From an uncultured Gammaproteobacteria bacterium (GTDB lineage: Bacteria; Patescibacteriota; Microgenomatia; UBA10105; UBA927): DNA of 64,000 nt. Below the pieces are notes generated by a model that saw only the letters and a list, made by a program, of their open reading frames with translations, ran no database searches and was not told the origin of the DNA. Of the stretch, positions 35,003-60,677 are shown piece after piece. The position numbers were made by a program, and so were the translations under genes. The stretch is from positions 3,137-67,136 of the forward strand of contig CAZKLT010000004.1 of NCBI GenBank assembly GCA_964553825.1, given 5' to 3'. The number at the start of each line of letters is the position of its first letter. Within the stretch, counting starts at the first letter, position 1.

Positions 35003-35055
35003 AACCCGGGGAGCGAGTTTGCTCCAACTTGTTCCCTGGGTTCGTATCATTTTTT
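35003..35055 (+). terminator. Possible terminator (compound hairpin AACCCGGG...CCCTGGGTT then T5)
   Basis: Imperfect stem, 8-nt gap before T-run; weak. Confidence 0.3.
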
Positions 35056-35079
35056 CGTATTTGTGATACGATAAATATT

Positions 35080-38106: not shown

Positions 38107-38613
38107 ATGACAGCGGCGAAACAGGCTCTCTCCTACGAAACGTGGGGCATCTTGGTTGTTTTCTTTCTTCTTGCGGCTGTGGCGTATTTTATCCGTTTCG
38201 TCGATACGCCGTCGCGGAAAATTTTTGGTGCGCAGATGTTTAACCAGGTTACGAACCGTGCGGACATGCCGATATGGGAGAACCCCGATTTCCCGCGTCA
38301 GGCAGGTTTACTTGAGATTTTTTCCATAAATGGCATGCTTGTGTTTGATGGTCACTTTGAACGACCTCTTCCCAAGACATCACTTGTCGTGTGGGTGCAT
38401 GTGGGAAGCTGTCGGCACATGGGAGAGAGGCGCTACGTACTGCCGCCGACATCAGCAGAAGCATCGGTCTGGTGGACGAGTTTGTATGCGTTCCCCTGGG
38501 AGCGGCTTTCGGGTGAGCTTCCGCTTGCGGTTTCGTTTCGCGATCCGGACGGTGAGCATGCGATATATTATTGCGCTGATATTCTGATGGAACAGGAAGG
38601 AGAGGCACCATGA
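38107..38613 (+). CDS. Hypothetical membrane-anchored protein
   Basis: Start set at internal Met to avoid overlap with LRR gene; one N-terminal TM. Confidence 0.4.
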   Translation: MTAAKQALSYETWGILVVFFLLAAVAYFIRFVDTPSRKIFGAQMFNQVTNRADMPIWENPDFPRQAGLLEIFSINGMLVFDGHFERPLPKTSLVVWVHVGSCRHMGERRYVLPPTSAEASVWWTSLYAFPWERLSGELPLAVSFRDPDGEHAIYYCADILMEQEGEAP

Positions 38614-39014
38614 GTGCATGGATACTCGCGGCACTTGTGTTTTGTCTAAGCGCGGTGGTTTCGGCGTACGTATCGCTTGCGCGCACAGCGTATGATCTGG
38701 TCGTGAACGATCAACCGGTCGGGACATCGATTGTGGTTGAGCGGCTGGTGCTTGAAAAAGGAGGCTATCTTGCCATCACACCGCTTTCCGGTCCAAACAC
38801 GCAGCAGTCAGTTTCCGACTATATGCCTGCAGGCGTATTTACTGATTTCAATGTGGATATCTATTGGGGAGACGAGCTTGATCTTCCGGCGCAGACGCCG
38901 GTAGTTGTACGGATCCTCGTGGATAACGGGGATGTGTACTTTGACTCGGAATTTGATGTACCTGCCCGAAACGCGCAGGGGCAGATGTATGAAAAAACGA
39001 TTGTCCTTCGGTAG
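38610..39014 (+). CDS. Small exported protein, family A (divergent)
   Basis: ATGA overlap with previous; VVNDQPVGTSIVVERLVLEKGGYLAI. Confidence 0.5.
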   Translation: MSAWILAALVFCLSAVVSAYVSLARTAYDLVVNDQPVGTSIVVERLVLEKGGYLAITPLSGPNTQQSVSDYMPAGVFTDFNVDIYWGDELDLPAQTPVVVRILVDNGDVYFDSEFDVPARNAQGQMYEKTIVLR

Positions 39015-40128
39015 ACTGGCCGTTGTTGTCGCGCTTGCTGTCCTGTGCGGCTTGGCGGCAGGTGCTTTGTTTAGAGGAATCAGAGGGGAGACGCTGAGGG
39101 AGCATGTCGCCTCCGCGTTTACATCCTGCGCAGAACCCACGAAGGAATTCGACTACAACTGTCTGCGAACGGTCATGACGCCGCTTGTGCGTGAGGATAC
39201 GCTTACACCCGTAATGGAGCACCTGCACGATATTTTTTCGTCGCCTGATGTTTCGCTTCAGACGCATGGTGCGCTGACGTGTCATCCGTCCGGCCATGTG
39301 GCAGGAGAGATAGCCGCAGAGAAACACATAGCGTTTTCCCGTATTACGCAGTTGTGCGGCGCGTCGTGCGATTACGGATGCACACATGGGGCATTTGTGG
39401 TAACGCTGCGGCGTGATCCTGGCTTTCTGGACAGAGTGGGTACCCTGTGCGATGAACTTTCTTCTTCCGGTATACGGCGGCAAATGTCTTCGTGTGGGCA
39501 TGTCGTCGGCCATGGGTTGGCCGAGGTATTTGCCAGCAACACTGACAAGGCTCTCGGGTATTGCGATGCGATTGATGATGCGTCCGCGCGTCATGCCTGT
39601 GGGCAGGGGGTTATGATGGAACAGCTTATTGGACTGCCAGACCGGCCAAAGAATATACCGTTGTCGTTGGAAAGCGTGCTGGTATTTTGCGACAGCCTTC
39701 CGGGTGTCTATAGGAAAGAGTGTTTCGATAACGTAGGAACGTATGCCGGACGGATTACGCAAACGGTACAGGAGGCGAAAGATGTCTGCACGCATGTTCC
39801 TGCTGAGTCAGCCGTGGCGTGTGTACAATCTCTTGGCGGCGTGGCGTACTATCATTTCCGGCATGAACCGGAGCAAATGAGCGCATACTGTCGCTCGATG
39901 GACAGTGCAGTGCAGGCGCCGTGCGTTCGGGGCGTTCTGGAGACCAGCGTCGGCGAAAAAGACCGCTTATGGTATGGCAATGCCCTCTGCAGGACATTTG
40001 CGCAATCCGCCCGCAGGGATTGTTTCGCATACTTCGGTATCCAGGTGGGCATGGCCTGGGGAGACCAGGTACGGGCAGATACGTGCAGTGCGCTGGAGAA
40101 AGAGGATATGCAGGCGTGTCAATTATGA
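38989..40128 (+). CDS. Cys/His-rich membrane-anchored paralog 1 (subtype D)
   Basis: N-terminal TM; CHPSGHVAGE..CGASCDYGCTHGAF..CGHVVGHG..CGQGV; start at internal Met MKKRLSF. Confidence 0.65.
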   Translation: MKKRLSFGRLAVVVALAVLCGLAAGALFRGIRGETLREHVASAFTSCAEPTKEFDYNCLRTVMTPLVREDTLTPVMEHLHDIFSSPDVSLQTHGALTCHPSGHVAGEIAAEKHIAFSRITQLCGASCDYGCTHGAFVVTLRRDPGFLDRVGTLCDELSSSGIRRQMSSCGHVVGHGLAEVFASNTDKALGYCDAIDDASARHACGQGVMMEQLIGLPDRPKNIPLSLESVLVFCDSLPGVYRKECFDNVGTYAGRITQTVQEAKDVCTHVPAESAVACVQSLGGVAYYHFRHEPEQMSAYCRSMDSAVQAPCVRGVLETSVGEKDRLWYGNALCRTFAQSARRDCFAYFGIQVGMAWGDQVRADTCSALEKEDMQACQL

Positions 40129-41066
40129 ATATCCGCACCATTTTTTCCCGCCTTCCGGTGCCCATGAGGTGGGTCATCCTGCTTGGGGCAATCGGGATAG
40201 CGCTTTTTGCCGTTACCAAGACAGGATATACCGACCGCCGGCATCCAGCGCTTCTGAGTGGCAGGGAAGTCGTACGGGTGCGTGGACAGATTACGCGTGT
40301 CATGCGGACGAAAGGGCCGCGGGTAGCGTATGCATACGCCAAGACATTGTTTCCGTACGACACATCGGGTGTTTCCCAGCACTTGACGATGCATATCTTT
40401 GCGGAAGTGGCGTACGGCCGGTACGGCGCCACCGCCATGGCGTATTGTGATCGGGAGTTTTCATATGGGTGCTATCATGGCTTTTTGGGGCAGAATATTG
40501 CCCGTGAGGGTCTGGACGCGGCGCGAGATCTTTTTCTGGCATGTAAGGATGAACCGAATGTCATCGCATGCCAGCATGGGATCGGGCATGGCATTATGCA
40601 ATATATGGGCCACAGACGTTTGAAGGATGCTCTTGATGCTTGTGTGCAGATCGGCGCACCCGTCGCCGCGACCGGATGCTTCGGTGGTGCGTATATGGAG
40701 TATCACTTTCCCGCGTTGTCAGCCGGCGGGGCACAGACGGCGATGCGGTTTGATCCAGAGAATCCGTATGACGTCTGTCCTGAGCTCCCGACTGCGTACC
40801 AGTCGTCGTGTTACTTCCGTCTGGCCGAGTGGTGGGAGCAGATTCTTAGCCGTAACTACCGCCTGATGGGCGGACTGTGTGCCAGGATAGGGGAGAGCGG
40901 GATGCGTGAGCAGTGCTTTACCGCCATCGGGGCAACGAGTTTTACCACCGGGGGACATATCCGGCAGGGGGTTATCGATGCCTGCAATCAGGCGACAGGC
41001 AGCCCGGGATACGAGCGGTACCGGGATATCTGTTTGCGGGGATTTGATACACAGAGTCAACGTTGA
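40125..41066 (+). CDS. Cys/His-rich membrane-anchored paralog 2 (subtype D)
   Basis: ATGA overlap with paralog 1; MHIFAEVAYG..CDREFSYGCYHGF..CQHGIGHG..CFGGAY. Confidence 0.7.
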   Translation: MNIRTIFSRLPVPMRWVILLGAIGIALFAVTKTGYTDRRHPALLSGREVVRVRGQITRVMRTKGPRVAYAYAKTLFPYDTSGVSQHLTMHIFAEVAYGRYGATAMAYCDREFSYGCYHGFLGQNIAREGLDAARDLFLACKDEPNVIACQHGIGHGIMQYMGHRRLKDALDACVQIGAPVAATGCFGGAYMEYHFPALSAGGAQTAMRFDPENPYDVCPELPTAYQSSCYFRLAEWWEQILSRNYRLMGGLCARIGESGMREQCFTAIGATSFTTGGHIRQGVIDACNQATGSPGYERYRDICLRGFDTQSQR

Positions 41067-41072
41067 TCAGGC

Positions 41073-42161
41073 TTAGTTCTTCCAGACGTTGTGGACCAGG
41101 ATGCCCTCCGTGAAGTAATTGTGCTGTTCTCCCGGAAGGCTGAGGTTGTAGACGGGCGGATTTTCGTCTACTGCTGTAATGCTGCCCACGAGTAGCTGGT
41201 TTCCCTGGGGGTCAAGGAGCATATCGTTCACGCGAATAGCGTCGGCTCTGAGCCACGCCTTCCTGTTTTCCACCCAGATATTGTGACCTTTCGTGACACG
41301 CAGTGTCCCGTTGATCACCAGATACCCTGCTTCCTGCGACTCCGGATCTTCCGAGGGACTTGTATGAACCAGAAGCGCGGCTACAGGATTGGGTACCAGA
41401 GTTTCTGTCGTTAGGTCGTAGGAGAGTACAACGTCGCCCGGTCTGATATCCTGTATTTCCTTCAGGGTGCCGTCTGCCATAAGTACCTTGGTGCCAGCCA
41501 GGAAACATCCGCCATAGCTGCCATATGATGATTGCCCGTACCCATAATAGCTTGCTTGTCCATAGCCATAGCTGTAAGAATAGTAGCTGCTTTGGCTATA
41601 GGCATAGTAGTTGGATTGGCTATAGGCATAGTAGTTTGCCTGGCCGTAATTATAGTAGGTGGATTCGGAGTAGGAATAGCAATTATTGGTGTACTGCCCA
41701 TTACCGTCGTCGCAATCTGCACTGAGGGACTTCATGAGGCCAATTCTTCTTCTTCCGGGTGCAGACGCATCATAGTATTGGGCAGTGGGACTAAACCACC
41801 CGTCTGCATCCGCGTCATCAATCCAAAGACCGTTGCCTACCAGAAGCTGGCCGCTGCCGATTGCAATACCACCCGCGCCGTTGATGATAAATTGTCCGGC
41901 AATGATTTTCTGGCTTGACGAGAGGGTCAGATTGTAATCTCCCAGAGTGATGGTAGCGGAATTTGTCGTGGATGATTCGCTGTTTTGCGGGTTGTCTACC
42001 CCGTCAATCGTATATGAGTATGTACAGGAAGCCGTGAGGACGACGTTGCCGTATGTTGTCGCAGGACGGGCACAATCAGCTAACACCGTGTGTTTCGGCG
42101 CGAGAAGGAGCAAGAATACGAGTGCGCAAAGTAATGCAAGGGGTGTGAAAAGTCTTTTCAT
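41073..42161 (-). CDS. Secreted protein with C-terminal Hint (bacterial intein-like, BIL) domain and Tyr/Ser/Gly-rich linker
   Basis: Signal peptide; ...YYAYSQSNYYAYSQSSYYSYSYGYG... then CFLAGTKVLMADG (Hint block A), TKGHNIW (block B TxxH), VYNLSLPGEQHNYFTEGILVHN (blocks F/G) ending 4 aa before stop with Val at +1. Confidence 0.85.
   Translation of the reverse strand: MKRLFTPLALLCALVFLLLLAPKHTVLADCARPATTYGNVVLTASCTYSYTIDGVDNPQNSESSTTNSATITLGDYNLTLSSSQKIIAGQFIINGAGGIAIGSGQLLVGNGLWIDDADADGWFSPTAQYYDASAPGRRRIGLMKSLSADCDDGNGQYTNNCYSYSESTYYNYGQANYYAYSQSNYYAYSQSSYYSYSYGYGQASYYGYGQSSYGSYGGCFLAGTKVLMADGTLKEIQDIRPGDVVLSYDLTTETLVPNPVAALLVHTSPSEDPESQEAGYLVINGTLRVTKGHNIWVENRKAWLRADAIRVNDMLLDPQGNQLLVGSITAVDENPPVYNLSLPGEQHNYFTEGILVHNVWKN
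41560..41660. repeat. Tandem ~24-bp DNA repeats (TTGGCTATAGGCATAGTAGTT..) encoding the NYYAYSQS repeats of the Hint protein
   Basis: Direct repeats read from sequence inside CDS 41073..42161. Confidence 0.6.
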
Positions 42162-42164
42162 ATG

Positions 42165-42740
42165 TTAGCGAAACGCAAAGCCGCCTGTATAGGTTTCATC
42201 TGTGCCGACCAGGGTGAAGTCGAGATAGTATATTTCGTTGTAGGTGTCGTCAGAAATGCGAGTCGCTTGCCACGTGCCGTTGGTGTCGGTACCCGCGATA
42301 CGCGTAAATGTGAGTGGTGTTTTCTTCGTATCGGTGTCGAGCCGCGCCGTGACCGACGTGATGGGGGATGTATGGGTGGCCTTTACGGTGATCGTCTGAG
42401 TGACACCGGGTTTCACGCCAAGCGGATCAAGGCTGAATTCGTAGATTTTGGGGCCCTTGGCTTTTGGACCCGGAGCATATTGGAATGTTTCTTTCCCGGG
42501 ATTAAGAAGTCGGGGAGACGGCTTGGGTCGCATGCTGGCGGTAGGAGTAGCGCCGCCCGATTCTTCTGCGGGCACACCGCTTAACCAAGAAACCATCTCA
42601 CCCTTTTGCGTAAAAATGTAGAATGCCAATAGAAGTACAATAGCACCAATGCCTATAAAAAGAGGGGTATTGGAGATGCCGTTGGACCTTACCTTATTCA
42701 CGATATGATTTCTTTTAGACTTTGCCTTATGTAATTTCAT
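42165..42740 (-). CDS. Hypothetical membrane-anchored protein (beta-rich ectodomain), operonic with Hint protein
   Basis: N-terminal TM (LFIGIGAIVLLLAFYIF); 4-nt gap to downstream Hint gene. Confidence 0.5.
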   Translation of the reverse strand: MKLHKAKSKRNHIVNKVRSNGISNTPLFIGIGAIVLLLAFYIFTQKGEMVSWLSGVPAEESGGATPTASMRPKPSPRLLNPGKETFQYAPGPKAKGPKIYEFSLDPLGVKPGVTQTITVKATHTSPITSVTARLDTDTKKTPLTFTRIAGTDTNGTWQATRISDDTYNEIYYLDFTLVGTDETYTGGFAFR

Positions 42741-42865
42741 GACAATGTCCTTATCTTCATCCTAGGAATACGCACATCTCTTGTCAAGGGGTAAACGTGA
42801 TATACGTTACTGACCGTTTACTATATAGTTGATACAACGATGTAAGATAGATTACTTGAGACTGA

Positions 42866-44047: not shown

Positions 44048-45524
44048 CAGAAAGGCGATAACAGGAGGGACGATTGCCGTTTTTGCCGCATGCGTGTGGG
44101 TGTTTTGGGCAAAGGCGTTCGTCGTGGGAGACGGCAGGAGTATAACGTTCCGTCAGGACGGTTACCGGCCCACGCGATTAACCGTGCGCGTCGGGGATTC
44201 CGTGACGTTCAGAAACAATTCGGGCAAGCCATTCTGGCCAGCCAGCAATAACCACCCAATCCATGAACTGTATCCCGAATTCGATCCGCGTAAGCCGATT
44301 GCTCCCGGTGAGTCATGGCAGTTTACGTTTACCCAAGAAGGAAAATGGCGTTTTCATGATCATATATATCCGGAATTTCGCGGCACGATCATGGTGCTCC
44401 CTCCGGGGAAAACCACCCTTCCGCCGCTTGACTGCAGTGCGTCTGCTGATGCCCAAACAAAAGGTCGCTGCTGGGAGGAAACCCTCAGTGATGCCCTGGA
44501 AACACGCGGCATTGCGGGCGCGTTCAAGGAATTTTCCCGATTGTATAAAACGGACACCGACTTCATACGCAGCGGGTGTCATGTGCACGCCCATAGGATC
44601 GGGGATGAATTTTTCCAGGCATATGCATCCAAGCTGCGGAAGCTGGAGGGCATAGAATTGCCCGTGGAAACTATGAGCTGTGGATACGGGTTTTTCCACG
44701 GATTGTTTGAACATTTTTTCCGGAAGTATCCGGATGTAGAATTGGCGCGGGCGATTTGTGACGACTTGGATTCGCGCTACAGCAAGACAATTCCGCTTAT
44801 CCGTATCAACTGTTTCCATGGCGCCGGTCACGGACTGATTGCGGATCCTCCCGATCCTTCATCCTGGGGAAACCCAAAGTCGCTTGTGGCTGGGCCGCTT
44901 GCGCTGTGTGCGCAAATTTCCCATATACCCGATGAATCGCATGCCTGCATTGACGGGATATTCAATGTCGTATCCAGTTGGATGGGGGACGCCAAGTACG
45001 GTATGAGCATAGACGCGGCAGATCCGTTCTGGCTTTGTGAATCAGTCCCCGACGTGGCAAAGGAATCCTGTTATTATGAACAAATTATGGTAATGAGCGA
45101 GATGGAGAATAGGGATCTGCTTGCAATTACGCGGAAATACGTGGCACCGATTGCGGATCCGCAGATCGCAAGGCTTGTTATGTTCTCGCTTGCGGCATCG
45201 TTCATGCAAAAAGACGTCGCACTTGCCGATCACGCGCATATGCTCGTGAATTGTAGAAATGTGCCCGCCGGTCTGAAAGAACGTTGTTTAGAAGGCGTGT
45301 TAAACGGTTTTAAGGGACATGGCGAACCGGGAAATGAATACAACAAAGCGCTGGCATTCTGTGCGCTTCCCCAGATGACGCGGGAGGAACAGCAGGTCTG
45401 TTATCCGTATCTGGTAAGGATTCTTTGGGAGTTATATCCGGCCCAAAAAGTGTTGTCTCTTTGTTCAATGATTCCCAGTGAATACAGAAATGCCTGCGAA
45501 ACACGGATGATTCAGCAAAACTAA
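44040..45524 (+). CDS. Cys/His-rich paralog 4 with N-terminal cupredoxin-like domain (subtype C)
   Basis: TM, then ITFRQDGYRPTRLTVRVGDSVTFRNNSGKPFWPASNNHPIH...WQFTFTQEGKWRFHDHIYPEFRGTIMVL, then CHVHAHRIGDEFF..CGYGFFHGLFE..CFHGAGHG; 8-nt overlap with paralog 3. Confidence 0.7.
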   Translation: MNNRKAITGGTIAVFAACVWVFWAKAFVVGDGRSITFRQDGYRPTRLTVRVGDSVTFRNNSGKPFWPASNNHPIHELYPEFDPRKPIAPGESWQFTFTQEGKWRFHDHIYPEFRGTIMVLPPGKTTLPPLDCSASADAQTKGRCWEETLSDALETRGIAGAFKEFSRLYKTDTDFIRSGCHVHAHRIGDEFFQAYASKLRKLEGIELPVETMSCGYGFFHGLFEHFFRKYPDVELARAICDDLDSRYSKTIPLIRINCFHGAGHGLIADPPDPSSWGNPKSLVAGPLALCAQISHIPDESHACIDGIFNVVSSWMGDAKYGMSIDAADPFWLCESVPDVAKESCYYEQIMVMSEMENRDLLAITRKYVAPIADPQIARLVMFSLAASFMQKDVALADHAHMLVNCRNVPAGLKERCLEGVLNGFKGHGEPGNEYNKALAFCALPQMTREEQQVCYPYLVRILWELYPAQKVLSLCSMIPSEYRNACETRMIQQN

Positions 45525-45526
45525 CG

Positions 45527-46696: not shown

Positions 46697-48101
46697 AGCG
46701 CATGCATTTTTTCTGTTTACGGCATCAGGAATTTTGGGCCTCATTGCTTTTGTTGCTGTCGGCACCTGGTTTTCCAATACCGTTATTACCTTGACGGATG
46801 ACGGATTTTCTCCGAGGGTGGTAGTAGTGAGGAAAGGGGCGACAGTTCGCTTCAGTTCAAATCGTGGGCGATATTTCTGGCCCGCATCCGATCCGCACCC
46901 CATCCATACGAAGGAGCTGAGTTTTGATCCGAAGCGTGCCATTGCCCCGCAGGGTCAGTGGGAGTTTGTTCCCATGTCAGCAGGAATTTGGACATACCAT
47001 GATCACACCGCTCCGCAGTTTCGCGGGACGGTTATTGTACTTGCGGGCGACAGCAGCGTTTTGTCGTATGTGTGGGGACGTATTGGTCAGTGGGCTCGCA
47101 TCGTTTTGCTGAACACGCAGCGGCAAAGCGATGCATATTTCCGCGACTGCGGCCCTCTGGGTAAGGACTGTTGGGACAGAGCGTTTCTCGAAGTGGTCAA
47201 CCGCGAGGGGTCGCGGGAGGCATTAAGAATGGTGGATTATCTGCGGCGGACGTATCCTGAGTTTGCCAATTATTGCCACCAGTATGCCGATTTTATTGGT
47301 GACATTTCTTATTGGAATATACCTGCGGCGCGCAGAGTTCTTGATTTTGACATCTCGCTTGCCGGGCAGTGCTCAAGCGGCTACATGCACGGATATATGG
47401 GAGAGTTTATGTCACACGGTATTTTCGCGCAGGGTGTGGCATTTTGCGATCAGATTAGAGCCAAATACCCGGGAACAGAAGCGGCATTGGAGTGTTACCG
47501 GGGGATCGGCAATGGGCTTACCTTTCAAAACGGTTTTCTCTATTGGAATGATGAAACAGCGATCGTCGATCACGCTCTTGCCGGTTGCAGCGGGTTGGCA
47601 GAAGAAGATGCCTGTCGAAGTGGGGTATTTGTGGGGATAGATCACATGCATTTTGGCGTACACGGTTTTGAGTTACGACGTGATCCGAATGATCCGTTTG
47701 CGCTTTGCCGTGGCCGGGATACCGTTACCGAGGCTGCCTGTTATGATGCGACGATCTCATCCTTTTTTGCGGCGGTTGGTTATGATTTGTCCGAAGCGGC
47801 GAAGCATCTGCGCATACTACCCCTTATTCATGCCAAGCGCGTGGTGGAGCAAGTCGTGAAAATTCCTTACGAGCTGGAAGATTTTGAACGGAAAGGCGGA
47901 AATATGACCATTATTGCCTGGTGCCGATCAATCGGCGGTGCCTTACATCCTGCATGTTTTCGGGGATTTGTCCTGAAGTTATACACGATCGATGTTGAGT
48001 ATAATGGACAAAGTAGTCTTGCCCGCGAATTCTGTGGGAATTCATTTCTGAATCAGTCAGAGAAAGACATGTGTCAGCAGATATTCAATGAAGCCATATA
48101 A
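46674..48101 (+). CDS. Cys/His-rich paralog 6 with cupredoxin-like N-domain (subtype C); GTG start
   Basis: ITLTDDGFSPRVVVVRKGATVRFSSNRGRYFWPASDPHPIH...WEFVPMSAGIWTYHDHTAPQFRGTVIVL; 23-nt overlap with paralog 5. Confidence 0.65.
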   Translation: MRSKLFNRAHAFFLFTASGILGLIAFVAVGTWFSNTVITLTDDGFSPRVVVVRKGATVRFSSNRGRYFWPASDPHPIHTKELSFDPKRAIAPQGQWEFVPMSAGIWTYHDHTAPQFRGTVIVLAGDSSVLSYVWGRIGQWARIVLLNTQRQSDAYFRDCGPLGKDCWDRAFLEVVNREGSREALRMVDYLRRTYPEFANYCHQYADFIGDISYWNIPAARRVLDFDISLAGQCSSGYMHGYMGEFMSHGIFAQGVAFCDQIRAKYPGTEAALECYRGIGNGLTFQNGFLYWNDETAIVDHALAGCSGLAEEDACRSGVFVGIDHMHFGVHGFELRRDPNDPFALCRGRDTVTEAACYDATISSFFAAVGYDLSEAAKHLRILPLIHAKRVVEQVVKIPYELEDFERKGGNMTIIAWCRSIGGALHPACFRGFVLKLYTIDVEYNGQSSLAREFCGNSFLNQSEKDMCQQIFNEAI

Positions 48102-49269
48102 ACTCATTATTCCAATTTCATTATTTTTTCTGGTTACCGCTTCCTATGTGGGCCTGTATCGCGGAGCGGGATCGACGCCCCAACATGCAGCGCAGCGTGT
48201 CATCAGTCGGTGTCAGAACGAAGCCCACCGACCTGCCTGTTATGAGCGGGAGATTCCGAAACTCATGAACACGCTCTCCATGGAAGATGCCTTTGCCGTC
48301 ACCCGTCTGGTGCAGGACGCTGATCCAGCGTTTGCATACTGTCATGTGGTAGCGCATAAATTAACCGCGATAGAAACAAAAAAGAATCCTCTGAGGTGGA
48401 AAGACGTCATGCTCAGGTGTCCGCAATCGGCGTGTAATTACGGCTGCCTCCACGGATCGCTTATCGAACGGTTCCGCGGAGAAACACTCAGCGATACGCA
48501 GATCGCTCAAACCGAACTCAGCATAAAAGATCTCTGTGAGCCGCGCCCGGGATTTGCTCCAACGGAAATTGAGCGCACGATGTGTTATCACGGCATAGGA
48601 CATCTTGCGATGTATATGACCGGAGGAGATCCTGCGCGCAGTATTCCGGTATGTGAGCGGCTTGCGAAGCGGGACGATGGCCGGGAGTATATAAAAACGT
48701 GTGTTGAAGGCGTATTTATGACTGTTTTTCAGAGTATCGATCCTGAAGATCTCGCCCTCGTTATCGACATTAGGCCCAACAAGCAGGATGTTGGCGCTTT
48801 CTGTGAGCAGTACGGTGTATACGTGGCCAACTGCCGACGTGAATCTTACGCGATGTTCGCAGACGAAACCCAAACCGCCGAAGGACTCCGCTCTTTCTGT
48901 TCCTATGCCCGCGGAGAAGAGGAAAAGCGGGATTGTTATTGGGCGGTGATTAACGCCAAAACGACGATATTCTTTGAACAGTCCGATTCGGTTTCCCGGA
49001 TTGGAGCATACTGTCGATCGTTTCCGGCAGACACTCGCAGCTGGTGCTGGCGGGGAGCGGCTATGCGGTTAGTACAAATAGATCCGTTGAGGAATGTCCG
49101 TGCGGCTGATTCCGTCTGCGCTATGGGGTCGACACAAACAGAAATCCAATCCTGTTATCAGGATTTGCTTTATTATGCTGAATTCTCGTTTGAAAAAAAC
49201 AGCCAACCATATAAAGAGTATTGCGGCGGCCTTGCCGAATCCTGGAGACAGCAATGCGTCAGTCAATAA
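48088..49269 (+). CDS. Cys/His-rich paralog 7 (subtype A)
   Basis: RCQNEAHRPACYEREIPKLM..YCHVVAHKL..CNYGCLHGS..CYHGIGHLAMYMTGGD. Confidence 0.7.
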   Translation: MKPYKLIIPISLFFLVTASYVGLYRGAGSTPQHAAQRVISRCQNEAHRPACYEREIPKLMNTLSMEDAFAVTRLVQDADPAFAYCHVVAHKLTAIETKKNPLRWKDVMLRCPQSACNYGCLHGSLIERFRGETLSDTQIAQTELSIKDLCEPRPGFAPTEIERTMCYHGIGHLAMYMTGGDPARSIPVCERLAKRDDGREYIKTCVEGVFMTVFQSIDPEDLALVIDIRPNKQDVGAFCEQYGVYVANCRRESYAMFADETQTAEGLRSFCSYARGEEEKRDCYWAVINAKTTIFFEQSDSVSRIGAYCRSFPADTRSWCWRGAAMRLVQIDPLRNVRAADSVCAMGSTQTEIQSCYQDLLYYAEFSFEKNSQPYKEYCGGLAESWRQQCVSQ

Positions 49270-50450
49270 AAAGGAAACCATTGATCGTGGGAACACTTAT
49301 AGCAGCGTGCGTGGGCTTGCTTGCCGTTGGCGTCTGGTATGTGTCGCGGGGAGCGAGCGTATCGTCAAAAATGGTGGCAGCCTTGGCCTCAAGCTGCGCT
49401 CAGTCAACGGAAACTGCCAAAACGCAGTGTTGGGAAGATCTCGTGCGTAAGGTTATCCGGGAGCATGGCGTACGGGCGGCGTTTGACGTTATATCCGCTC
49501 TGCATGATGCAGATGCGCAATTTGCACAAACCTGTCACGCCATGGTGCATATTGTGGGACAACAGGCATACGGAGAATTTCATACGACCGGACGGGTTGA
49601 TTTGTCAGCGAAGGCAGCGTCCTGCGCATTTGGGTTCTATCATGGATTTATGGAGATGTTGGTAGCGCGCAAAGGGACGATTGCCCAGGCGCAGCAATTT
49701 TGTGATTATGTCGATCGGATACTCGGAAATGAGACACCGAATGCGATATATAGCTGCACTCACGGGATTGGACACGGATCTACCGATATTCATAATCCTC
49801 AGTATTATGGGAATGAGCGGGCGGTCATAGCGCCTGCGATTGCAAATTGTGAGGCATTTGCCCGGGACGATCATGAGCTGACGCTCTGCGCGACGGGCAT
49901 ATTTGATTCGATTGCGCTTGCATACTACAACAACGGAGAAAATGGGTTTGTGATGAAAAAAGAGGACCCGCTCTGGCTCTGCCACGAGCAACCCTTAAAG
50001 TATAAGGAGGCGTGCTATCGTGATATGATGCCAGCCGTGATTTGGATGGGGGAGCACGACCTGACCCTTGCCGCCCCGATCGTTTTCACGCACGCAGAGG
50101 ACGACTACAAGGCGTTTGCCCTTGAAGCCCTTGCGGAAAACAGCGTTCGGTTCATTGTGAACAAAAAACCAACCACCGTATATCTGCCATATTGTCGCTC
50201 CCTTACGGGAAGTCTCTCTGATGCCTGTGTACGCGGATTGGCGGCAGGAGCGATGCAATTTGGCAGACCTGATCGTGAATATGAAGACGCGTTGGTATTC
50301 TGTAAAGACGACCTGCTCACTGCCGGAGAGAAGGATATCTGCATGAAGCGGATTTTGGATTATGCACGCGGGCGGTATTCGCAAAAGCGGGTTTCTGATA
50401 TCTGCAGGGAAACAGAAGAAATCTGGCGACCGTACTGCACACAACTATGA
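49254..50450 (+). CDS. Cys/His-rich paralog 8 (subtype B)
   Basis: QCWEDLV..CHAMVHIVGQQAY..CAFGFYHGFMEML..CTHGIGHG..CATGIFDSI; start at ATG 49254 (16-nt overlap). Confidence 0.7.
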   Translation: MRQSIKRKPLIVGTLIAACVGLLAVGVWYVSRGASVSSKMVAALASSCAQSTETAKTQCWEDLVRKVIREHGVRAAFDVISALHDADAQFAQTCHAMVHIVGQQAYGEFHTTGRVDLSAKAASCAFGFYHGFMEMLVARKGTIAQAQQFCDYVDRILGNETPNAIYSCTHGIGHGSTDIHNPQYYGNERAVIAPAIANCEAFARDDHELTLCATGIFDSIALAYYNNGENGFVMKKEDPLWLCHEQPLKYKEACYRDMMPAVIWMGEHDLTLAAPIVFTHAEDDYKAFALEALAENSVRFIVNKKPTTVYLPYCRSLTGSLSDACVRGLAAGAMQFGRPDREYEDALVFCKDDLLTAGEKDICMKRILDYARGRYSQKRVSDICRETEEIWRPYCTQL

Positions 50451-51676: not shown

Positions 51677-51677
51677 T

Positions 51678-52667
51678 ATGCGTATGCAACAAATATCATC
51701 GCCAATATGGTGGGCGTTTTGCGCGCTGGGCGTGACGGTTGCCGTTATCAGTGCCGCTGCGGGCATGATGGCGCCGCCGGAGCCGAGCGCCCCTGTCACC
51801 GATTCAGCGGGTGCCGTGCGGCAACTGTCGGGTATTATCCGCGCGCGCGGAGTAGATGCTGCGCAGGCGTTTTTTCTTAAACACTTCTTCTCGTACTCTG
51901 ACAACCACAGGCACTATCTGGGCCATCTAATCGGTGAGCACATATATAAGACATATGGTATGGACGGCATTAGCAGGTGTTATTCCAGTATGGAGTTTGG
52001 CTGTATCCACGGGTTTCTGCTGACTGGCTATATGGATCGGGGCGATCCGTTTCTTGACGCGGTCATTTCACGTTGCAGTCAGGATTTGCCGGAGGGGTGC
52101 ATGCATGGGCTCGGTCATGCGTTTTTGCTTATACGGGGATACGATATTGCCGATGTACGGTCCAGTATTGACGCCTGTCTTGCCCTGAGCACGCAGTTGC
52201 CGTACCGGCAGCAGTGTATTCAGGGGGTATATATGGAATACAATGACCGGTTTCTGGTTGACGGATCGCTGAGCGCAAATTCGTTTAAACCAAGAGCATA
52301 CGATCCAGACAATCCATATGCTCCGTGTGACACCGAGCCGGCACAGCTTCAGCCGATTTGTTATCGGGAACTCGTGTTGTACTGGTCGAATATTTCTACA
52401 CTGAACCCAGAGCTCATGGCTGATCTGTGCAACGGATTGTCCGGCGAAAACCGCTATGAGTGTTATTGGAGCTTGGGCGGTCTCGTAGCCGGTGACAGTA
52501 AAGAAATAGAGTCTCCGCTTGTCGAATGCTTACAGTTTGCACCGAAAGATTTGTCCGCATGTCTGAAAGGCGCAGTCCTATCAGTGGCATTTCAGAGCCA
52601 AAGGCCCCGTTCTGAATTCTGTGCACCACTACCTGCTGCTGTAGCTAAGGAGTGCCGCACATGGTAA
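51678..52667 (+). CDS. Cys/His-rich paralog 10 (subtype D)
   Basis: HYLGHLIGEHIY..CYSSMEFGCIHGF..CMHGLGHAF..CIQGVYMEY. Confidence 0.7.
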   Translation: MRMQQISSPIWWAFCALGVTVAVISAAAGMMAPPEPSAPVTDSAGAVRQLSGIIRARGVDAAQAFFLKHFFSYSDNHRHYLGHLIGEHIYKTYGMDGISRCYSSMEFGCIHGFLLTGYMDRGDPFLDAVISRCSQDLPEGCMHGLGHAFLLIRGYDIADVRSSIDACLALSTQLPYRQQCIQGVYMEYNDRFLVDGSLSANSFKPRAYDPDNPYAPCDTEPAQLQPICYRELVLYWSNISTLNPELMADLCNGLSGENRYECYWSLGGLVAGDSKEIESPLVECLQFAPKDLSACLKGAVLSVAFQSQRPRSEFCAPLPAAVAKECRTW

Positions 52668-53677
52668 AGATAAAGCATATTATCGGCATCGGCCTTCTTG
52701 TAATTGCAGTAGTTTTCGGTGCGCTGTACGCAGCCTCATCCCGCAGCGACAGCCTTTCGCGCGTTTTTGCCGGCGGTGACTTGTCGCCGGGGAAGCTGCG
52801 GGGTGCCTTCATGGCGACCATCCAGCGTGACGGTCCGGCCGAAACGTACACCAGGCTCAAGGTGCTGCTTGCCGGTATCGACGCTCCTCAGCAACACAGC
52901 ATCGCTCATATATTCGGGAATGTACTTTATAAAACAAACGGACTGTCGGGCCTGACGGTCTGCGATGCCAGCTTCGGATTTGGGTGTTACCATAGCTTTT
53001 TTGGCGCTGCCATCAGCGAAAAGGGGGAGAGCATTGTCACAGAGCTTGATCGTATTTGTGTTTCGGCGTATGGACCGATGGGACTTGGGTGTCCCCATGG
53101 GATAGGGCATGGCCTTGGAGCGTATTTCGGGCCGGACAGGATCGACGAGCAGCTTGCCCTGTGCAGTACCCTCAGCTGGAAAGGGAAGTATCTCGGGTGT
53201 CAGGGTGGCGTTTTTATGGAATATAATACGCCCACAGAAAGCCAGAGTGATACAGCCACAACTTCCGTGCGGCCCTTTGATCCCGATCGGCCGTACGGTA
53301 TCTGTCAGCAGATTGACGACACATTTCAGCCGGCCTGTTTCCTGGAGTTGTCGGGCTGGTGGGAACAGGCTATGGGTAGGGACTACGCGAGAATAGGGGC
53401 GTTATGCCGGCACGTGCAAGGCAGGAACAATCGGGACAGTTGTTTTCTGGGTATCGGATATGCGGTAGCACAGTCTACCTGGTATGATCTGCAGCAGACG
53501 CGCGATGCATGTGCAGCCGCAGGGGATGCCGATGAAGAAATGCTGTGTACCGCAGGCGCCGCGTGGAGCTTTTTTGCCAATCCGGCGGTGCGGGGGCAGG
53601 CCGCGGACGTGTGTCAGCGTCTGGCGAACGATATGCGGGCAGATTGTGTTAAGCGATCCGACCTACTTTCCCTATAG
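52661..53677 (+). CDS. Cys/His-rich paralog 11 (subtype D)
   Basis: HSIAHIFGNVLY..CDASFGFGCYHSF..CPHGIGHGL..CQGGVFMEY. Confidence 0.7.
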   Translation: MVKIKHIIGIGLLVIAVVFGALYAASSRSDSLSRVFAGGDLSPGKLRGAFMATIQRDGPAETYTRLKVLLAGIDAPQQHSIAHIFGNVLYKTNGLSGLTVCDASFGFGCYHSFFGAAISEKGESIVTELDRICVSAYGPMGLGCPHGIGHGLGAYFGPDRIDEQLALCSTLSWKGKYLGCQGGVFMEYNTPTESQSDTATTSVRPFDPDRPYGICQQIDDTFQPACFLELSGWWEQAMGRDYARIGALCRHVQGRNNRDSCFLGIGYAVAQSTWYDLQQTRDACAAAGDADEEMLCTAGAAWSFFANPAVRGQAADVCQRLANDMRADCVKRSDLLSL

Positions 53678-53680
53678 GAT

Positions 53681-55159
53681 ATGAGAAAGTTTCGTGCATT
53701 TTTACTGCTGCGATACCGAATTGTGATCCTTATTTTGGCTATTTTTCTTGCCTGCGCAGGCGCCATCTGGTTTTGGGTTCCCCAACCGCGTACGGTGGCT
53801 TTGGGTGAAAAAGGATTTGAACCCGCTGAACTTCGTGTGCCGGTCGGTACGGTGATCACCTTCGAAAATCACACACAAAAAACCTTTTGGCCGGCCAGCA
53901 ACTTCCACCCGTCGCACAAGATATATCCAGAGTTTGACTCGAAGAAGCCCATACCGGCGGGTGATTCCTGGAGTTTCCGTTTTTCGGTTGCCGGAGTATG
54001 GCGTTACCATGACCATCTCAACAGCCGCCACACCGGAACAATAATCGTGTATGCATCACCGTTTGTCCGGGCACAACAACTGTGCGACGGCGACATTGAT
54101 GTCCTGCCGACGAAGACGCAGGAGCGCTGTTGGATACAGGATATAGAAAAGACGCTCGTGACAAAGGGGATTGACGCGGCGTTTGAGCAGTTCGGCCGCC
54201 TGTACGAGACGAAAAATGCATTCTCCGCCGACTGTCATGATGTTACTCATTTGCTGGGTGAGGCGGCGTATAGGGATTATGTGCGCCACGGAACAGTCAT
54301 AGAGTCGACAAAAACAGCCTACTGCGGGTACGGATTCTATCATGGATTCATCGAGGCGCTCTTGTTTACCACCGGGGATTTTCAGCAGGCAAAGTCCTAC
54401 TGTCATGCCGTACAAGAGAAGCTGGAAGAGAAGATTGTCTCACCCAATGCCATTTATTCATGCTATCACGGGCTTGGTCACGGAACATTTGATACGCAGG
54501 CGTACTCAGAGTGGGGCGACGACGAACAGATGCTTGCATCTGCGCTGGATACCTGCGACCGGGTAACCCGGGGCGAGGAGCAGGAATTGGTGAAACAGTG
54601 TGCAACCGGCGTGTTTAATGCCCTGGCCAATGCGTACAACAACAATACGTATAATCTTTCGTTCGACCGGCAGGCGCCGTGGGGCGTGTGCGATAATCAG
54701 AAGAACGATGAGCACAAGAAGGCATGTTTCCGTGAAGTTACCGCATCATATATAAAGGGGACCGTGAAGGATACGAAGGAGGGCCTTACGAAACTCTCGC
54801 AGATCGTAGATCCCGTAGGAGCGGGGGCTGCCATGTTTGCGTATATGAGTGAGGAGGCGCGATTGGGAATGGACGTGATTGCCGCAAGTGAATTCGTCCG
54901 TCTTTGCAACACGCTTCAATCTTCTCTGCTGCGCGCGGCGTGTGCGCAGGGAGTGGGGGCTGGTTTATTTCTGTGGGGCAAACCGGGACACGAACATGAG
55001 AAGGCGATTGCATTCTGTATGACCCAGGGACTGGGAGTCGAAAGTCGGGATGCGTGCATGACCTATATTGTGCCCCGTATACGCACTGTGTATAACCGGG
55101 ATAGAGTTTCGGCCGTCTGCCGCGCGATTGATCCGGCATATCAGCATTTATGTCAATGA
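53681..55159 (+). CDS. Cys/His-rich paralog 12 with cupredoxin-like N-domain (subtype C)
   Basis: VALGEKGFEPAELRVPVGTVITFENHTQKTFWPASNFHPSH...WSFRFSVAGVWRYHDHLNSRHTGTIIVY; CHDVTHLLGEAAY..CGYGFYHGFIEAL..CYHGLGHG..CATGVFNAL. Confidence 0.7.
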   Translation: MRKFRAFLLLRYRIVILILAIFLACAGAIWFWVPQPRTVALGEKGFEPAELRVPVGTVITFENHTQKTFWPASNFHPSHKIYPEFDSKKPIPAGDSWSFRFSVAGVWRYHDHLNSRHTGTIIVYASPFVRAQQLCDGDIDVLPTKTQERCWIQDIEKTLVTKGIDAAFEQFGRLYETKNAFSADCHDVTHLLGEAAYRDYVRHGTVIESTKTAYCGYGFYHGFIEALLFTTGDFQQAKSYCHAVQEKLEEKIVSPNAIYSCYHGLGHGTFDTQAYSEWGDDEQMLASALDTCDRVTRGEEQELVKQCATGVFNALANAYNNNTYNLSFDRQAPWGVCDNQKNDEHKKACFREVTASYIKGTVKDTKEGLTKLSQIVDPVGAGAAMFAYMSEEARLGMDVIAASEFVRLCNTLQSSLLRAACAQGVGAGLFLWGKPGHEHEKAIAFCMTQGLGVESRDACMTYIVPRIRTVYNRDRVSAVCRAIDPAYQHLCQ

Positions 55160-56697
55160 AACTGATTTTTCTATTCGTATGCTTCTGTATGGCCGTGGCT
55201 TTCCGGACAGGTGTTGCGCTGGCGGCGCCGGCGACTTCGGGAGCCCATATTGTTCTGACGAATGACGGATTTCAGCCGAAAGTACTTCAGATCCCCGTGG
55301 GCAGCAGCGTTACGTTTACCACAACGCGGGGACGGTATTTTTGGCCCGCATCAGATGAGCATCCGTCGCATAGTATATATCCGGAATTTGACCCCCGCGC
55401 ACCCATTTCACCGGAGGATTCGTGGTCCCATACCTTCGAGAGACCTGGCGTGTGGAAGTTTCATGACCATGTATCGCCGTCGTATACAGGAGAAATACGA
55501 GTGATGGAAACGGGTGACCGGGTGGTTCCGATAGAAAATAAGGAAAACGTAATTGTAAAACAATCCATACTATTAAAATTGAATAATTGGATTGTTCAGA
55601 ATGTTCTCCCTCTTAATTATCGTCGGTGTATGGATGAGGAGCTGAATCACGGATCCAGAATCCAGTGCTGGGAGCATGTAGTGGTGAAAATAACCCAGCG
55701 CAAAGGACTCATCACGGCACTTAACTTCGTGCATCGGCAGAGAAGCCGCGATACTGCCTTTGCATCCGACTGTCACGTCTATGTGCATCGCATCGGGGAG
55801 GAGTATTACTGGAAGTTTTTCAATGATCGGAAAATTGAAGTATCGGATAAGTTTGGCCTGTGTGATCAGGGATTTTTTCATGGGTTTATGCAGGAATTTA
55901 CGAGTCATGGGACAAATATGGTACAGGCGAAACGGTATTGCGACACGCTTCTGTCAAGAATGAAGCAAGATGAGCACGGAGAAATGCTGATTCAACAATG
56001 CTACCATGGAATCGGCCACGGAGCCGCATTTCTGTATGCCGCATCATTGTGGGGTAATACCGATGAAATTATACGACGATCGATTGCCGACTGTCGGTCA
56101 CTTATCGATGGAAATCCGCGTATGTGCATCAGCGGAGTCTTTGGCGGAATTGCGGCGATGCATTGGGGTCTTCACGGGTTTACGCTCGAAATGGACCCTT
56201 CTAATCCTTGGGAGCTCTGTAAAAACCAGGTGAAACCCGAGAACTTGGAATGCTATGATCAGCTTGTCCCCGTGCTTTTCAGCAAGGTTGATCTGGATTT
56301 AGAAGCCGCGGGTCGGTTGGTCGCTCAAATATCGGATGCGGAAATTCAACGTGTTGCCATGATACATTTAGGGAGCATGCCTTCGTATACGATTGTGTCC
56401 AAGACGGAGGATTACTCACAGATTGTTCAATCGTGCCGACGTTTTGCCTCCCCGCTTGATCGCGACTGCCTGTATGGATTTTCCGGTGCAATTACCCGTA
56501 TTGGCGCATTGCCCGAAGCGCAGGCGCGGTCTATCCGGTTTTGTGAGTCGTCATATCTGACTGAGGCCGAACGAGCAGTCTGTTATGATAGTGTCCGTCA
56601 GCAGATATCCATACATTATTCCGAGCGGGAAGCTGTACGGTTCTGTGAACGGATATCGGCTCGGTACCAGCATTCGTACTGCAGTAATCAGCCATGA
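55150..56697 (+). CDS. Cys/His-rich paralog 13 with cupredoxin-like N-domain (subtype C)
   Basis: IVLTNDGFQPKVLQIPVGSSVTFTTTRGRYFWPASDEHPSH...WSHTFERPGVWKFHDHVSPSYTGEIRVM; CHVYVHRIGEEYY..CDQGFFHGFMQEF..CYHGIGHG. Confidence 0.7.
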   Translation: MSMKLIFLFVCFCMAVAFRTGVALAAPATSGAHIVLTNDGFQPKVLQIPVGSSVTFTTTRGRYFWPASDEHPSHSIYPEFDPRAPISPEDSWSHTFERPGVWKFHDHVSPSYTGEIRVMETGDRVVPIENKENVIVKQSILLKLNNWIVQNVLPLNYRRCMDEELNHGSRIQCWEHVVVKITQRKGLITALNFVHRQRSRDTAFASDCHVYVHRIGEEYYWKFFNDRKIEVSDKFGLCDQGFFHGFMQEFTSHGTNMVQAKRYCDTLLSRMKQDEHGEMLIQQCYHGIGHGAAFLYAASLWGNTDEIIRRSIADCRSLIDGNPRMCISGVFGGIAAMHWGLHGFTLEMDPSNPWELCKNQVKPENLECYDQLVPVLFSKVDLDLEAAGRLVAQISDAEIQRVAMIHLGSMPSYTIVSKTEDYSQIVQSCRRFASPLDRDCLYGFSGAITRIGALPEAQARSIRFCESSYLTEAERAVCYDSVRQQISIHYSEREAVRFCERISARYQHSYCSNQP

Positions 56698-57908
56698 AAA
56701 CATATCTTGCTACAAGAGGAACAGGGATTTCTGTGATCTGGCTTTTGGTGGTTCTGTTCGGTGTGGGGACGGCGCTTGCGACCCGCGTGTATTATCCGGC
56801 CAAAAAGTCGCTTTCAGCCTACGCAGACGATGTGTATGAAAAATGTGCTCCGGCGCCGCATGCCCCATCCTGTTATGACGAGGAAATTCCGAGACTCATG
56901 GACCGCATATCTATGGAAGAGGCGTTCGAGGTGACCCGGTTTGTCCAGCAAAAAGACCCGCGATACCTGTACTGCCATGTACTTGGGCACAACATAAGCT
57001 ACCGTGAGGCGGATCGCGATGTATCGAAGTGGAAAGATGTGGTCGCCCGGTGTCCCACGACGTTTTGCAATAACGGGTGTCAGCACGGTGCGCTTATGCG
57101 CAGATTTAACGCGGAGAGTCTCACCGATGCGCAAATTCAACAGGTGAAGCCGGATCTGCAGGATGTTTGTGAGCCGAGAGGGAACTGGAATCCCCGCGAA
57201 GTAGAGCGCTCCATGTGCTATCACGCCTTGGGGCACCTTCATATGTTTATGACCAATGCGGATATTAATAAATCCGTGAACTTATGTCAGGATGTGGCGA
57301 CGAAACCTGATGGACGTAACTATGTGCAGACGTGCACGCAGGGCGTCCTTATGTCTGTCTATCAACCGCTTGAACCTGAGGATTTTGCGCTTGTGCGCGG
57401 ATTGACCCCGACGAAGGAAACAGTGAACGCATTTTGCGATCAGTTTACGGGTGAAGCCTGGTTTGCCTGTCATAGTGAATCATGGCCCTTGTTTCTGCAG
57501 GACATGAAAGAACCTGCCGGTCTCATGCGGTTTTGCAGTTATACGGATGAACCGTACCACAAAAAGAATTGTATAGGCACGGGCATGAGCATTCTCACTG
57601 TCTTGATGGTCGTGGAGCAGGGAGGCAGGCTTGATACACTTACGGCGTATTGCGATCAGTTGTCGGGTATCCACAAGGGGGATTGTTACGCGCATGCCGC
57701 GTTTCGGCTTGTGCAGATAGATCCTCGATATACCGCCCTGGCCAAGTCCGTGTGTGATGCCGCTTCCCAGTCCGGTGTTGGCGATGCGTGTTTCTCGTAT
57801 CTGCTTCAGCATGTCGACCAAAGCTTCGCTCCCGGACAAGAGGCAGATGCGTTTTGTTCCGCATTTGAGGAACCGTGGCAGACAAAATGCTCGACGCGGA
57901 CCTATTGA
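56694..57908 (+). CDS. Cys/His-rich paralog 14 (subtype A)
   Basis: ATGA overlap; KCAPAPHAPSCYDEEIPRLM..YCHVLGHNI..CNNGCQHGAL..CYHALGHLHMFMTNAD. Confidence 0.7.
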   Translation: MKTYLATRGTGISVIWLLVVLFGVGTALATRVYYPAKKSLSAYADDVYEKCAPAPHAPSCYDEEIPRLMDRISMEEAFEVTRFVQQKDPRYLYCHVLGHNISYREADRDVSKWKDVVARCPTTFCNNGCQHGALMRRFNAESLTDAQIQQVKPDLQDVCEPRGNWNPREVERSMCYHALGHLHMFMTNADINKSVNLCQDVATKPDGRNYVQTCTQGVLMSVYQPLEPEDFALVRGLTPTKETVNAFCDQFTGEAWFACHSESWPLFLQDMKEPAGLMRFCSYTDEPYHKKNCIGTGMSILTVLMVVEQGGRLDTLTAYCDQLSGIHKGDCYAHAAFRLVQIDPRYTALAKSVCDAASQSGVGDACFSYLLQHVDQSFAPGQEADAFCSAFEEPWQTKCSTRTY

Positions 57909-59223: not shown

Positions 59224-59273
59224 GTCTCATTTGGGCAAACGGGTATCATACTATACTGCCGGCTCACTCTGCG

Positions 59274-60673: not shown

Positions 60674-60677
60674 GGGT

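Follow-up and report, generated by a model that had tools for sequence, protein, structure and literature searches.

Exported proteins built from tandem helix pairs have a described precedent in the Helicobacter cysteine-rich proteins (Hcp) and their Sel1-like relatives, in which every repeat, about 36-44 aa long, is stabilized by its own disulfide. Patescibacteria, with genomes of roughly 0.6-1 Mb, have a surface biology that is mostly unknown. For the Candidate Phyla Radiation (CPR), 'putative cupredoxins' of unspecified type have been proposed as electron donors to NirK (PMC5581439). Here we analyzed a 64-kb window, that is, the whole of a 64,000-nucleotide stretch of contig CAZKLT010000004.1 (positions 3,137 to 67,136, forward strand), in which 14 paralogous genes encode a divergent family of membrane-anchored proteins rich in cysteine and histidine. 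All of them share a predicted helical core domain, and four carry an additional cupredoxin-like domain in front of it. The core domain and its operon-level organization are without a named counterpart among the libraries and the literature that we searched, and the novelty claimed concerns the family, the fold and the architecture, not a mechanism.

To characterize the relatedness of the 14 proteins, we aligned them with MAFFT, which yielded 11 invariant and four nearly invariant columns at a mean column identity of 27%. The earlier note on this DNA, made from the sequence alone, would have suspected an alignment artefact below ten shared positions, and the alignment lies above that number. 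Pairwise identity ranged from 14 to 38%, and BLASTP linked 72 of the 91 pairs at E<1e-3. A profile of the 14 paralogs, searched exhaustively against 1.84 billion cluster representatives (50% identity clusters), retrieved 7,761 representatives at E<=1e-3, 6,474 at E<=1e-10 and 3,125 at E<=1e-30, so the family is divergent but real, as had been proposed. The motif string described as invariant is not, since paralog 6 carries D, R and N at three of five His positions and paralogs 7, 9 and 14 lack the G of H-x3-H-x2-G. Two of the proposed groupings were recovered, namely subtype A (paralogs 7, 9 and 14) and subtypes B and C taken together (4, 5, 6, 8, 12 and 13), whereas subtype D is loose: paralogs 2, 3, 10 and 11 cluster weakly, and paralog 1 is an outlier with 17-21% identity to every other paralog. 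Long DNA repeats are indeed absent, with DNA similarity extending over at most 78 nt at 65-81% identity. Other genomes hold orthologs of paralog 5 with up to 75% identity, compared with 14-38% among the paralogs, and the duplications therefore long predate this organism. The repeated duplication and shuffling read from the interleaved subtypes, which would suggest recent turnover, thus gives way to old duplications, the window order of paralogs 1-13 being kept in a related locus (L004) at 47-68% identity.

Searches for known relatives agreed with the statement that the family cannot be assigned to any characterized domain. The core domain of all 14 paralogs had no match in Pfam at E up to 1, NCBIfam gave no core match and, as its sole result, a weak plastocyanin match in one member, and none of the 14 matched the PADLOC anti-phage profiles at E up to 0.01. 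Comparison with PDB sequence profiles from two alignments gave best E-values of 1.4 and 0.34, both spurious, and a PDB fold search of the core assigned no known fold, the nearest weak matches being TPR, ARM, HEAT and designed solenoids. A full-text literature search found no description of the core family, nor of DUF7282, a domain encoded directly next to it. We also considered several specific identities. Membership in the TPR, HEAT or ARM families was backed neither by a profile match nor by a meaningful structural superposition. A LanC-like cyclase, considered for its C-H-G and G-x-x-G-like motifs, was rejected because the alpha/alpha barrel with a Cys-Cys-His zinc site was not found, and a copper storage protein (Csp) because neither sequence nor fold matched a four-helix bundle with a Cys-lined core. 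No CxxCH motif, as expected of a multihaem cytochrome, was seen in the sequences.

AlphaFold modeled paralog 5 as an all-helical protein of about 20 helices (pLDDT 94.1, pTM 0.89). We then assessed conservation in 599 family sequences aligned to the family profile, using the residue numbers of paralog 5 throughout. The most conserved positions include cysteines (C157, C188, C201, C231, C242 and C302 at 99%, C313 at 98%, C338 at 97% and C351 at 92%), accompanied by G162 (99%) and G204 (98%). The number of ectodomain Cys is even in 14 of 14 paralogs (20, 12, 16, 16, 16, 14, 20, 16, 20, 14, 14, 16, 16 and 20 for paralogs 1-14), an outcome with a chance of about 6e-5 under independent parity. These totals of 12-20 correspond to 6-10 pairs in all, and not to the 'ten to twelve further Cys pairs' that had been counted beyond the motifs. 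Partners are also gained and lost together: C265 and C277 are both present in 245 sequences, single in 1 and both absent in 345 (phi 1.00), and C83 and C113 are both present in 474, single in 1 and both absent in 106 (phi 0.99). Given the even counts and the paired gain and loss across the 599 relatives, the core Cys are most likely structural disulfides rather than metal ligands. An enrichment of MdbA-like thiol-disulfide oxidoreductases and of VKOR, by which exported proteins acquire their disulfides, is reported for CPR genomes (PMC6744442).

The Cys pairs also mark out an internal periodicity. Sequence blocks containing one Cys pair each match one another at 70-95% probability in profile-profile comparison, and in paralog 5 a C-x2-G-x3-G signature, read from the alignment, recurs in the helix that follows the second Cys of the blocks (CSYGFYHGF, CYHGIGHGT, CATGVYNGL and CIQGYAFGF). 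Judged by these sequences, several of the 'motifs' of the earlier note look like copies of a repeating helix-pair signature rather than separate functional motifs, and the core appears to be made of about seven tandem helix-pair repeats with one Cys pair each.

Within the core, five histidines stand out. H84, H88, H119, H159 and H163 are each 94-96% conserved, and in the 582 sequences that cover all five positions their number is bimodal: five His in 550 sequences, four in 7, three in 3, two in 14, one in 2 and none in 6. H88, H159 and H163 are lost jointly (phi 0.86-0.94) while H84 and H119 stay, giving the degenerate patterns HDHRN, HDHVN, HDHLN and HEHQI. Window paralog 6 (HDHRN) is of this degenerate type, as is its p6-type counterpart in L004 (10911-12518), and another 23 sequences of the set likewise retain at most three of the five His. 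The all-or-none loss points indirectly to H88, H159 and H163 as a candidate three-His metal site, with H84 and H119 as a putative second, more persistent pair. The proposal that clustered Cys and His suggest metal binding is accordingly retained for the His only, the Cys behaving as obligate pairs. The paralog 6 lineage may be a non-metal-binding subunit, in which the Asp and Arg replacements could form a salt bridge that fills the former site. This lineage keeps the His/Asp set of its cupredoxin domain despite the loss of three core His. A HExxH or metzincin protease was rejected as well, as no Glu follows the first His and H88 is lost with H159 and H163, not with H84.

The cupredoxin-like domain, which had been assigned to subtype C, was found in exactly those four proteins (paralogs 4, 6, 12 and 13). 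Paralog 4 scores 27.4 bits against PF13473 (Cupredoxin_1), just over the 27-bit gathering cut-off, and paralogs 6, 12 and 13 fall below it (15.5, 19.7 and 18.0 bits). The relative P0200 reaches 67.5 bits, and a precomputed PF13473 match is present in most of the listed Rubrobacteraceae homologs with the N-terminal domain. In the two-domain AlphaFold model of paralog 4 (pLDDT 90.8, pTM 0.85), the N-terminal domain superposes on solved small cupredoxins and is predicted to form their Greek-key beta-sandwich; the H-P-x-H loop (residues 74-76) is the sole low-confidence stretch of the model. Across 211 cupredoxin domains, a W-P-A-S motif is conserved at 97-99%, together with H43 (96%), H46 (94%), H77 (99%), D78 (93%) and H79 (98%), while Cys does not exceed 3% in any column. 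In HMMER alignments, D78 fell on the copper-ligand Cys of both 5fc9 and a NirK-attached cupredoxin. We therefore rejected a type-1 (blue) copper protein, defined by a His-Cys-His-Met/Gln ligand set, the Cys position being Asp in 93% of the 211 domains and the downstream His position being variable. On this reading of the alignments, the array cupredoxin cannot be a classical type-1 electron carrier, and a His/Asp site of type-2-like copper or another transition metal at the former Cys position, around which the four near-invariant His of H-P-x-H and H-D-H lie, is plausible.

The N-terminal region of the proteins indicates where these domains reside. A short basic stretch opens each of the 14 proteins and leads into a single hydrophobic segment (Kyte-Doolittle means over 19 residues peak at 1.98-2.75), in agreement with the single N-terminal transmembrane (TM) helix that had been described. 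Because this segment is combined with paired Cys and, in some members, with a cupredoxin domain, the large domain would lie outside the cytoplasm.

Next, we examined how the family is distributed and arranged in other genomes. Named taxa among the matches include Gottesmanbacteria, Portnoybacteria, Kaiserbacteria, Taylorbacteria, Colwellbacteria, Nomurabacteria and Paceibacterota, and the taxon labels of several metagenome-assembled genomes (MAGs), e.g., 'Gammaproteobacteria', look unreliable. Judged by these related sequences, the window probably belongs to a Microgenomates-type Patescibacterium. One database protein (P0001, NCBI) is identical to paralog 6. With a family hidden Markov model, we counted 374 members over the window and 74 fetched loci combined. 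In most loci from Patescibacteria, 5-14 members lie within <=21 kb, one contig holds 19 in 27 kb, and complete genomes of 0.72 and 0.62 Mb contain at least nine and at least six copies, respectively. The composition of the arrays recurs. Among 39 arrays with at least five members, A-type genes are found in 37, D-type genes in 35, cupredoxin in 36 and all four classes in 24. The core common to the more distant arrays consists of one p3-like gene, one or two that are p11-like, genes with a cupredoxin and one p9-like gene. The paralog 3 lineage is among the best conserved (median 44% identity across other loci) and often provides the first array gene elsewhere, and the paralog 9 lineage is likewise well conserved (median 46%). 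Natural fusions join p9- and p11-like (P0135 and P0136), p3- and p11-like (P0002) and p3- and p5-like (P0139) sequences, and the lineages joined in this way are neighbors in the arrays. Some family proteins hold 2-7 copies of the domain.

Cupredoxin domains are present in 108 of the 374 family genes in the loci examined (about 29%), nearly always N-terminally and with one cupredoxin match in each gene, and 26 small genes encoding a TM segment plus a cupredoxin adjoin the arrays, such stand-alone versions occurring in 24 loci. Rubrobacteraceae and some archaeal-type MAGs have a single cupredoxin-plus-core gene, labeled 'plastocyanin' or 'cupredoxin domain-containing protein'. This single-copy form (L057 9353-10810; P0272-P0391) is abundant in Rubrobacteraceae and metagenome sequences, and it too lacks the copper-ligand Cys. 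In four loci it lies among genes for formate dehydrogenase, FdhD and a Zn-dehydrogenase; this formate dehydrogenase neighborhood of the Rubrobacteraceae copy is probably lineage-specific synteny. Other fusions were also seen: in the metagenomic protein P0130 (3580 aa), seven family domains precede a GH3 glycoside hydrolase domain and LRV/HEAT repeats, and P0092 carries an N-terminal alpha/beta-hydrolase domain (Abhydrolase_2) on a family relative.

In the window, all 14 open reading frames (ORFs) lie on the + strand and encode proteins of 313-515 aa, as the earlier note had it; they are not consecutive, as two minus-strand genes (41073-42740) part paralogs 1-2 from 3-14. The overlaps of 4-23 nt reported for genes 3-14 were found at eight of the 11 junctions, the remaining three being gaps of 1-3 nt. 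Upstream of this block, the ATG of paralog 2 overlaps the stop codon of paralog 1 (ATGA). The tight and often overlapping packing is consistent with one transcript and translational coupling.

We tentatively favor the explanation that the arrays encode a multi-subunit metalloprotein assembly at the cell surface, engaged in redox chemistry or metal handling. In this model, the 14 ancient paralogs would be exported proteins that an N-terminal signal-anchor helix keeps on the cell surface, and each ectodomain would form an all-helical repeat of about 350 aa with about seven disulfide-braced helix-pair units. The first two units would carry the five near-universal His, arranged as the three-His site plus the two-His pair, and a cupredoxin partner, either as an N-terminal domain or from a separate small gene, would add a Cys-less His/Asp metal site. 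Distinct paralog lineages would then assemble into a surface complex that serves metal binding, extracellular redox chemistry or metal handling. A bolder version, which we regard as doubtful, is that the arrays represent an unrecognized surface metalloprotein machine of Patescibacteria, in which a helical fold of a new kind would bind metal at a three-His plus two-His site and, together with a Cys-less cupredoxin, drive extracellular redox chemistry or metal acquisition, and whose minimal unit would be the single-gene form of Rubrobacteraceae and archaeal-type MAGs. Such a machine would place extracellular redox or metal acquisition in organisms thought to be nearly devoid of redox metabolism.

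Several points weigh against a metalloprotein assembly. Helical repeat domains are usually binding scaffolds rather than catalysts, and conserved buried His could be structural. Cupredoxin is absent from 10 of the 14 window paralogs, and the block-to-block hhalign scores behind the repeat assignment are driven largely by the two invariant Cys per block. Common descent, and not a physical complex, may be the reason why gene order is conserved, and a role as scaffold or in substrate binding would account just as well for the fusions to GH3 and alpha/beta-hydrolase domains. Scans for promoters and terminators gave results at or below chance and are uninformative either way.

A rival view is that the arrays form a non-catalytic surface coat of scaffolds or adhesins, in which protein- or glycan-binding helical repeats build an envelope layer or mediate host attachment and the His are structural, e.g., a buried polar ladder. 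The helical-repeat fold class, with TPR, ARM, HEAT and designed solenoids as the nearest weak structural matches, would suit such a coat, as would the surface-protein neighbors (leucine-rich repeat (LRR), Hint, Ig-like and DUF7282), the richness of the window in envelope glycan genes, and the giant proteins with 3-7 copies. We nevertheless consider it unlikely: a feature of structural value alone would not typically keep five His at 94-96% where pairwise identity is about 20%, nor lose three of these His jointly, the partner that recurs is a cupredoxin whose His/Asp set is near-invariant, and the lineages are conserved rather than diversifying, as seen from the identical order in L004 and the absence of DNA repeats.

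A less likely view still is that the paralogs are extracytoplasmic enzymes, such as three-His zinc hydrolases or oxidases whose substrates are host envelope polymers or nutrients, with each paralog representing a substrate specificity instead of a subunit of one complex. The His triad does behave as a unit, some relatives are fused to GH3 and Abhydrolase_2 domains, and the single-copy versions show, for Rubrobacteraceae and archaeal-type MAGs, that a lone copy can be functional. However, conservation above 60% is limited to His, Cys, Gly and a few hydrophobic residues, so that no conserved acid/base residue is present, no structural similarity to known enzyme folds was detected, and the retention of the triad-less paralog 6 lineage in the arrays fits a non-catalytic complex subunit better.

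It is improbable that the Cys pairs are themselves metal ligands, e.g., for two-coordinate Cu(I), and that the proteins constitute an extracytoplasmic copper store or buffer served by the cupredoxin. Strict Cys pairing would also be expected of two-Cys metal sites, the family is associated with cupredoxin, and many Patescibacteria inhabit anoxic water, where disulfides are less favored. Yet Rubrobacteraceae, whose habitat is aerobic soil, have the same architecture in abundance, the cupredoxin has no thiolate ligand of its own, and no search returned any similarity to copper storage proteins or metallothioneins. CPR genomes, moreover, encode disulfide-forming enzymes (PMC6744442). Finally, the tandem arrangement of paralogs for an exposed protein, in what is probably an epibiont, could recall a contingency array, with redundant surface paralogs kept for antigenic variation by recombination, but this is highly improbable given paralogs of 14-38% against orthologs of 47-75% identity, DNA similarity of at most 78 nt at 65-81% identity that leaves no substrate for gene conversion, and a conserved class composition of the arrays.

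Table 1. The array and the genes that border or interrupt it; the starts given are the likely ones.
Feature	Length	Coordinates	Strand	Remarks
DUF7282 gene		38610..39014	+	overlaps paralog 1 start by 26 nt
Paralog 1	379 aa	38989..40128	+	outlier subtype; 20 ectodomain Cys; five His complete
Paralog 2	313 aa	40125..41066	+	D-type; C-terminus shortened; 12 Cys
Hint/PT-HINT protein		41073-42161	-	Tyr/Ser-rich low-complexity stretch; inside array
Small TM plus Ig-like protein		42165-42740	-	inside array
Paralog 3	393 aa	42866..44047	+	D-type
Paralog 4	494 aa	44040..45524	+	C-type; TM helix, cupredoxin (about 44139-44399), then helical core
Paralog 5	389 aa	45527..46696	+	B-type; core only
Paralog 6	475 aa	46674..48101	+	C-type with cupredoxin (about 46764-47066); degenerate His set (H-D-H-R-N)
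Paralog 7	393 aa	48088..49269	+	A-type; 20 Cys
Paralog 8	398 aa from ATG 49254	49254..50450	+	B-type; alternative TTG start 49221
Paralog 9	409 aa	50447..51676	+	A-type
Paralog 10	329 aa	51678..52667	+	D-type; 14 Cys
Paralog 11	338 aa from ATG 52661	52661..53677	+	D-type; alternative GTG start 52652
Paralog 12	492 aa	53681..55159	+	C-type with cupredoxin (about 53786-54091)
Paralog 13	515 aa	55150..56697	+	C-type with cupredoxin (about 55225-55527); signal-peptide-like N-terminus
Paralog 14	404 aa	56694..57908	+	A-type; 20 Cys; closes array
DegT aminotransferase gene		57988-59223	-	convergent; directly beyond paralog 14

Several of the genes around the array (Table 1) have counterparts beside arrays elsewhere. 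The DUF7282 gene upstream of paralog 1 is probably the first gene of the paralog 1-2 transcription unit. Two more DUF7282 genes lie upstream (35029-35637 and 35710-36171, both +), and DUF7282 genes adjoin arrays in 11 other loci, including a Gottesmanbacteria contig. Proteins that cluster with the Hint/PT-HINT and Ig-like genes adjoin arrays in 23 other loci, which is an association only. Two leucine-rich-repeat proteins with N-terminal hydrophobic segments are encoded at 36174-36875 (-) and 37345-38070 (-), and LRR proteins are found beside arrays in seven other loci. Four more families that lack Pfam matches adjoin arrays in 11-16 loci and are absent from the window (represented by L033 17508-18065, L013 2559-3656, L015 16213-16851 and L032 132-800); among them are one small exported protein with a predicted mature N-terminal His and one multi-pass membrane protein.

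Envelope glycan genes dominate the window at 6391-33620 and 57988-60742. The set comprises three DegT-type aminotransferases, four sugar epimerase/dehydratases, two GT2 glycosyltransferases and PMT_2-type glycosyltransferases, and two large TPR proteins are encoded in the same part. As the rest of the window is dominated by such genes, the array appears to lie in a region of cell-surface biogenesis. A membrane protein encoded at 12707-13456 (+) scores 27.7 bits against the ferric-reductase-like transmembrane domain PF01794, just short of the cut-off of 28; in a genome that has few other redox genes, it may pass electrons through the membrane by haem b. Each 2-kb bin of 1-64000 shows a positive GC skew regardless of coding orientation, and no tRNA or Rfam features were found in the 64-kb window.

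The extent of the arrays bears on their importance. A single family accounts for 17 kb of coding sequence here, and arrays with 5-19 of its genes recur in genomes of the Microgenomates and Parcubacteria types. The retention of so much DNA by streamlined genomes would be unexpected without strong selection, and the family is probably important in Patescibacteria. It spans thousands of sequence clusters, yet neither a domain entry, nor a solved relative, nor a literature description was found. It is also directly testable, given a confident model, a sharp five-His signature and an unusual cupredoxin partner. 'Cupredoxin' and 'plastocyanin' annotations on these proteins call for caution against a blue-copper electron-carrier reading, as the copper-binding Cys is absent.

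Comparison with known systems places the two domains differently. The core may follow an architectural principle like that of the Hcp and Sel1-like repeat proteins, with which its helical model, the 70-95% matches between blocks and the paired Cys agree. With E values of up to 1 admitted, none of the 14 proteins matched the Sel1 repeat profile (PF08238). The core is a helical repeat of its own kind. For the cupredoxin, the EfeO/FtrB-type cupredoxin-like domains of iron uptake score below plastocyanin-type matches and differ in their motif set, and neither the window nor the examined loci show any EfeU/EfeB or FtrA/C/D partner. Compared with multicopper oxidases and copper nitrite reductase, the array H-D-H falls on their H-C-H/H-x-H and the H-P-x-H lies near their H-x-H-G, in a weak local alignment (E 5.7 for the NirK domain). 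The array proteins, in contrast, have a single cupredoxin, no Cys and no second His-rich cupredoxin for a trinuclear site, and the structural neighbors of the domain are single-domain cupredoxins, not oxidase domains. With one cupredoxin per protein and no Cys, we rejected membership in the multicopper oxidases or NirK, where H-x-H and H-C-H motif pairs of two or more cupredoxin domains build interface copper sites, and regard the resemblance as a lead, not a relationship. Where plastocyanin, amicyanin, the Nitrosopumilus purple cupredoxin 5fc9 and PF13473 have the Cys ligand, the array domain has Asp, and it does not conserve their canonical His and Met positions further downstream. The array cupredoxin is thus a known fold in a new sequence form, set apart from the small blue-copper cupredoxins by its own near-invariant W-P-A-S, H-P-x-H and H-D-H motifs and by its place fused to, or encoded beside, a helical domain.

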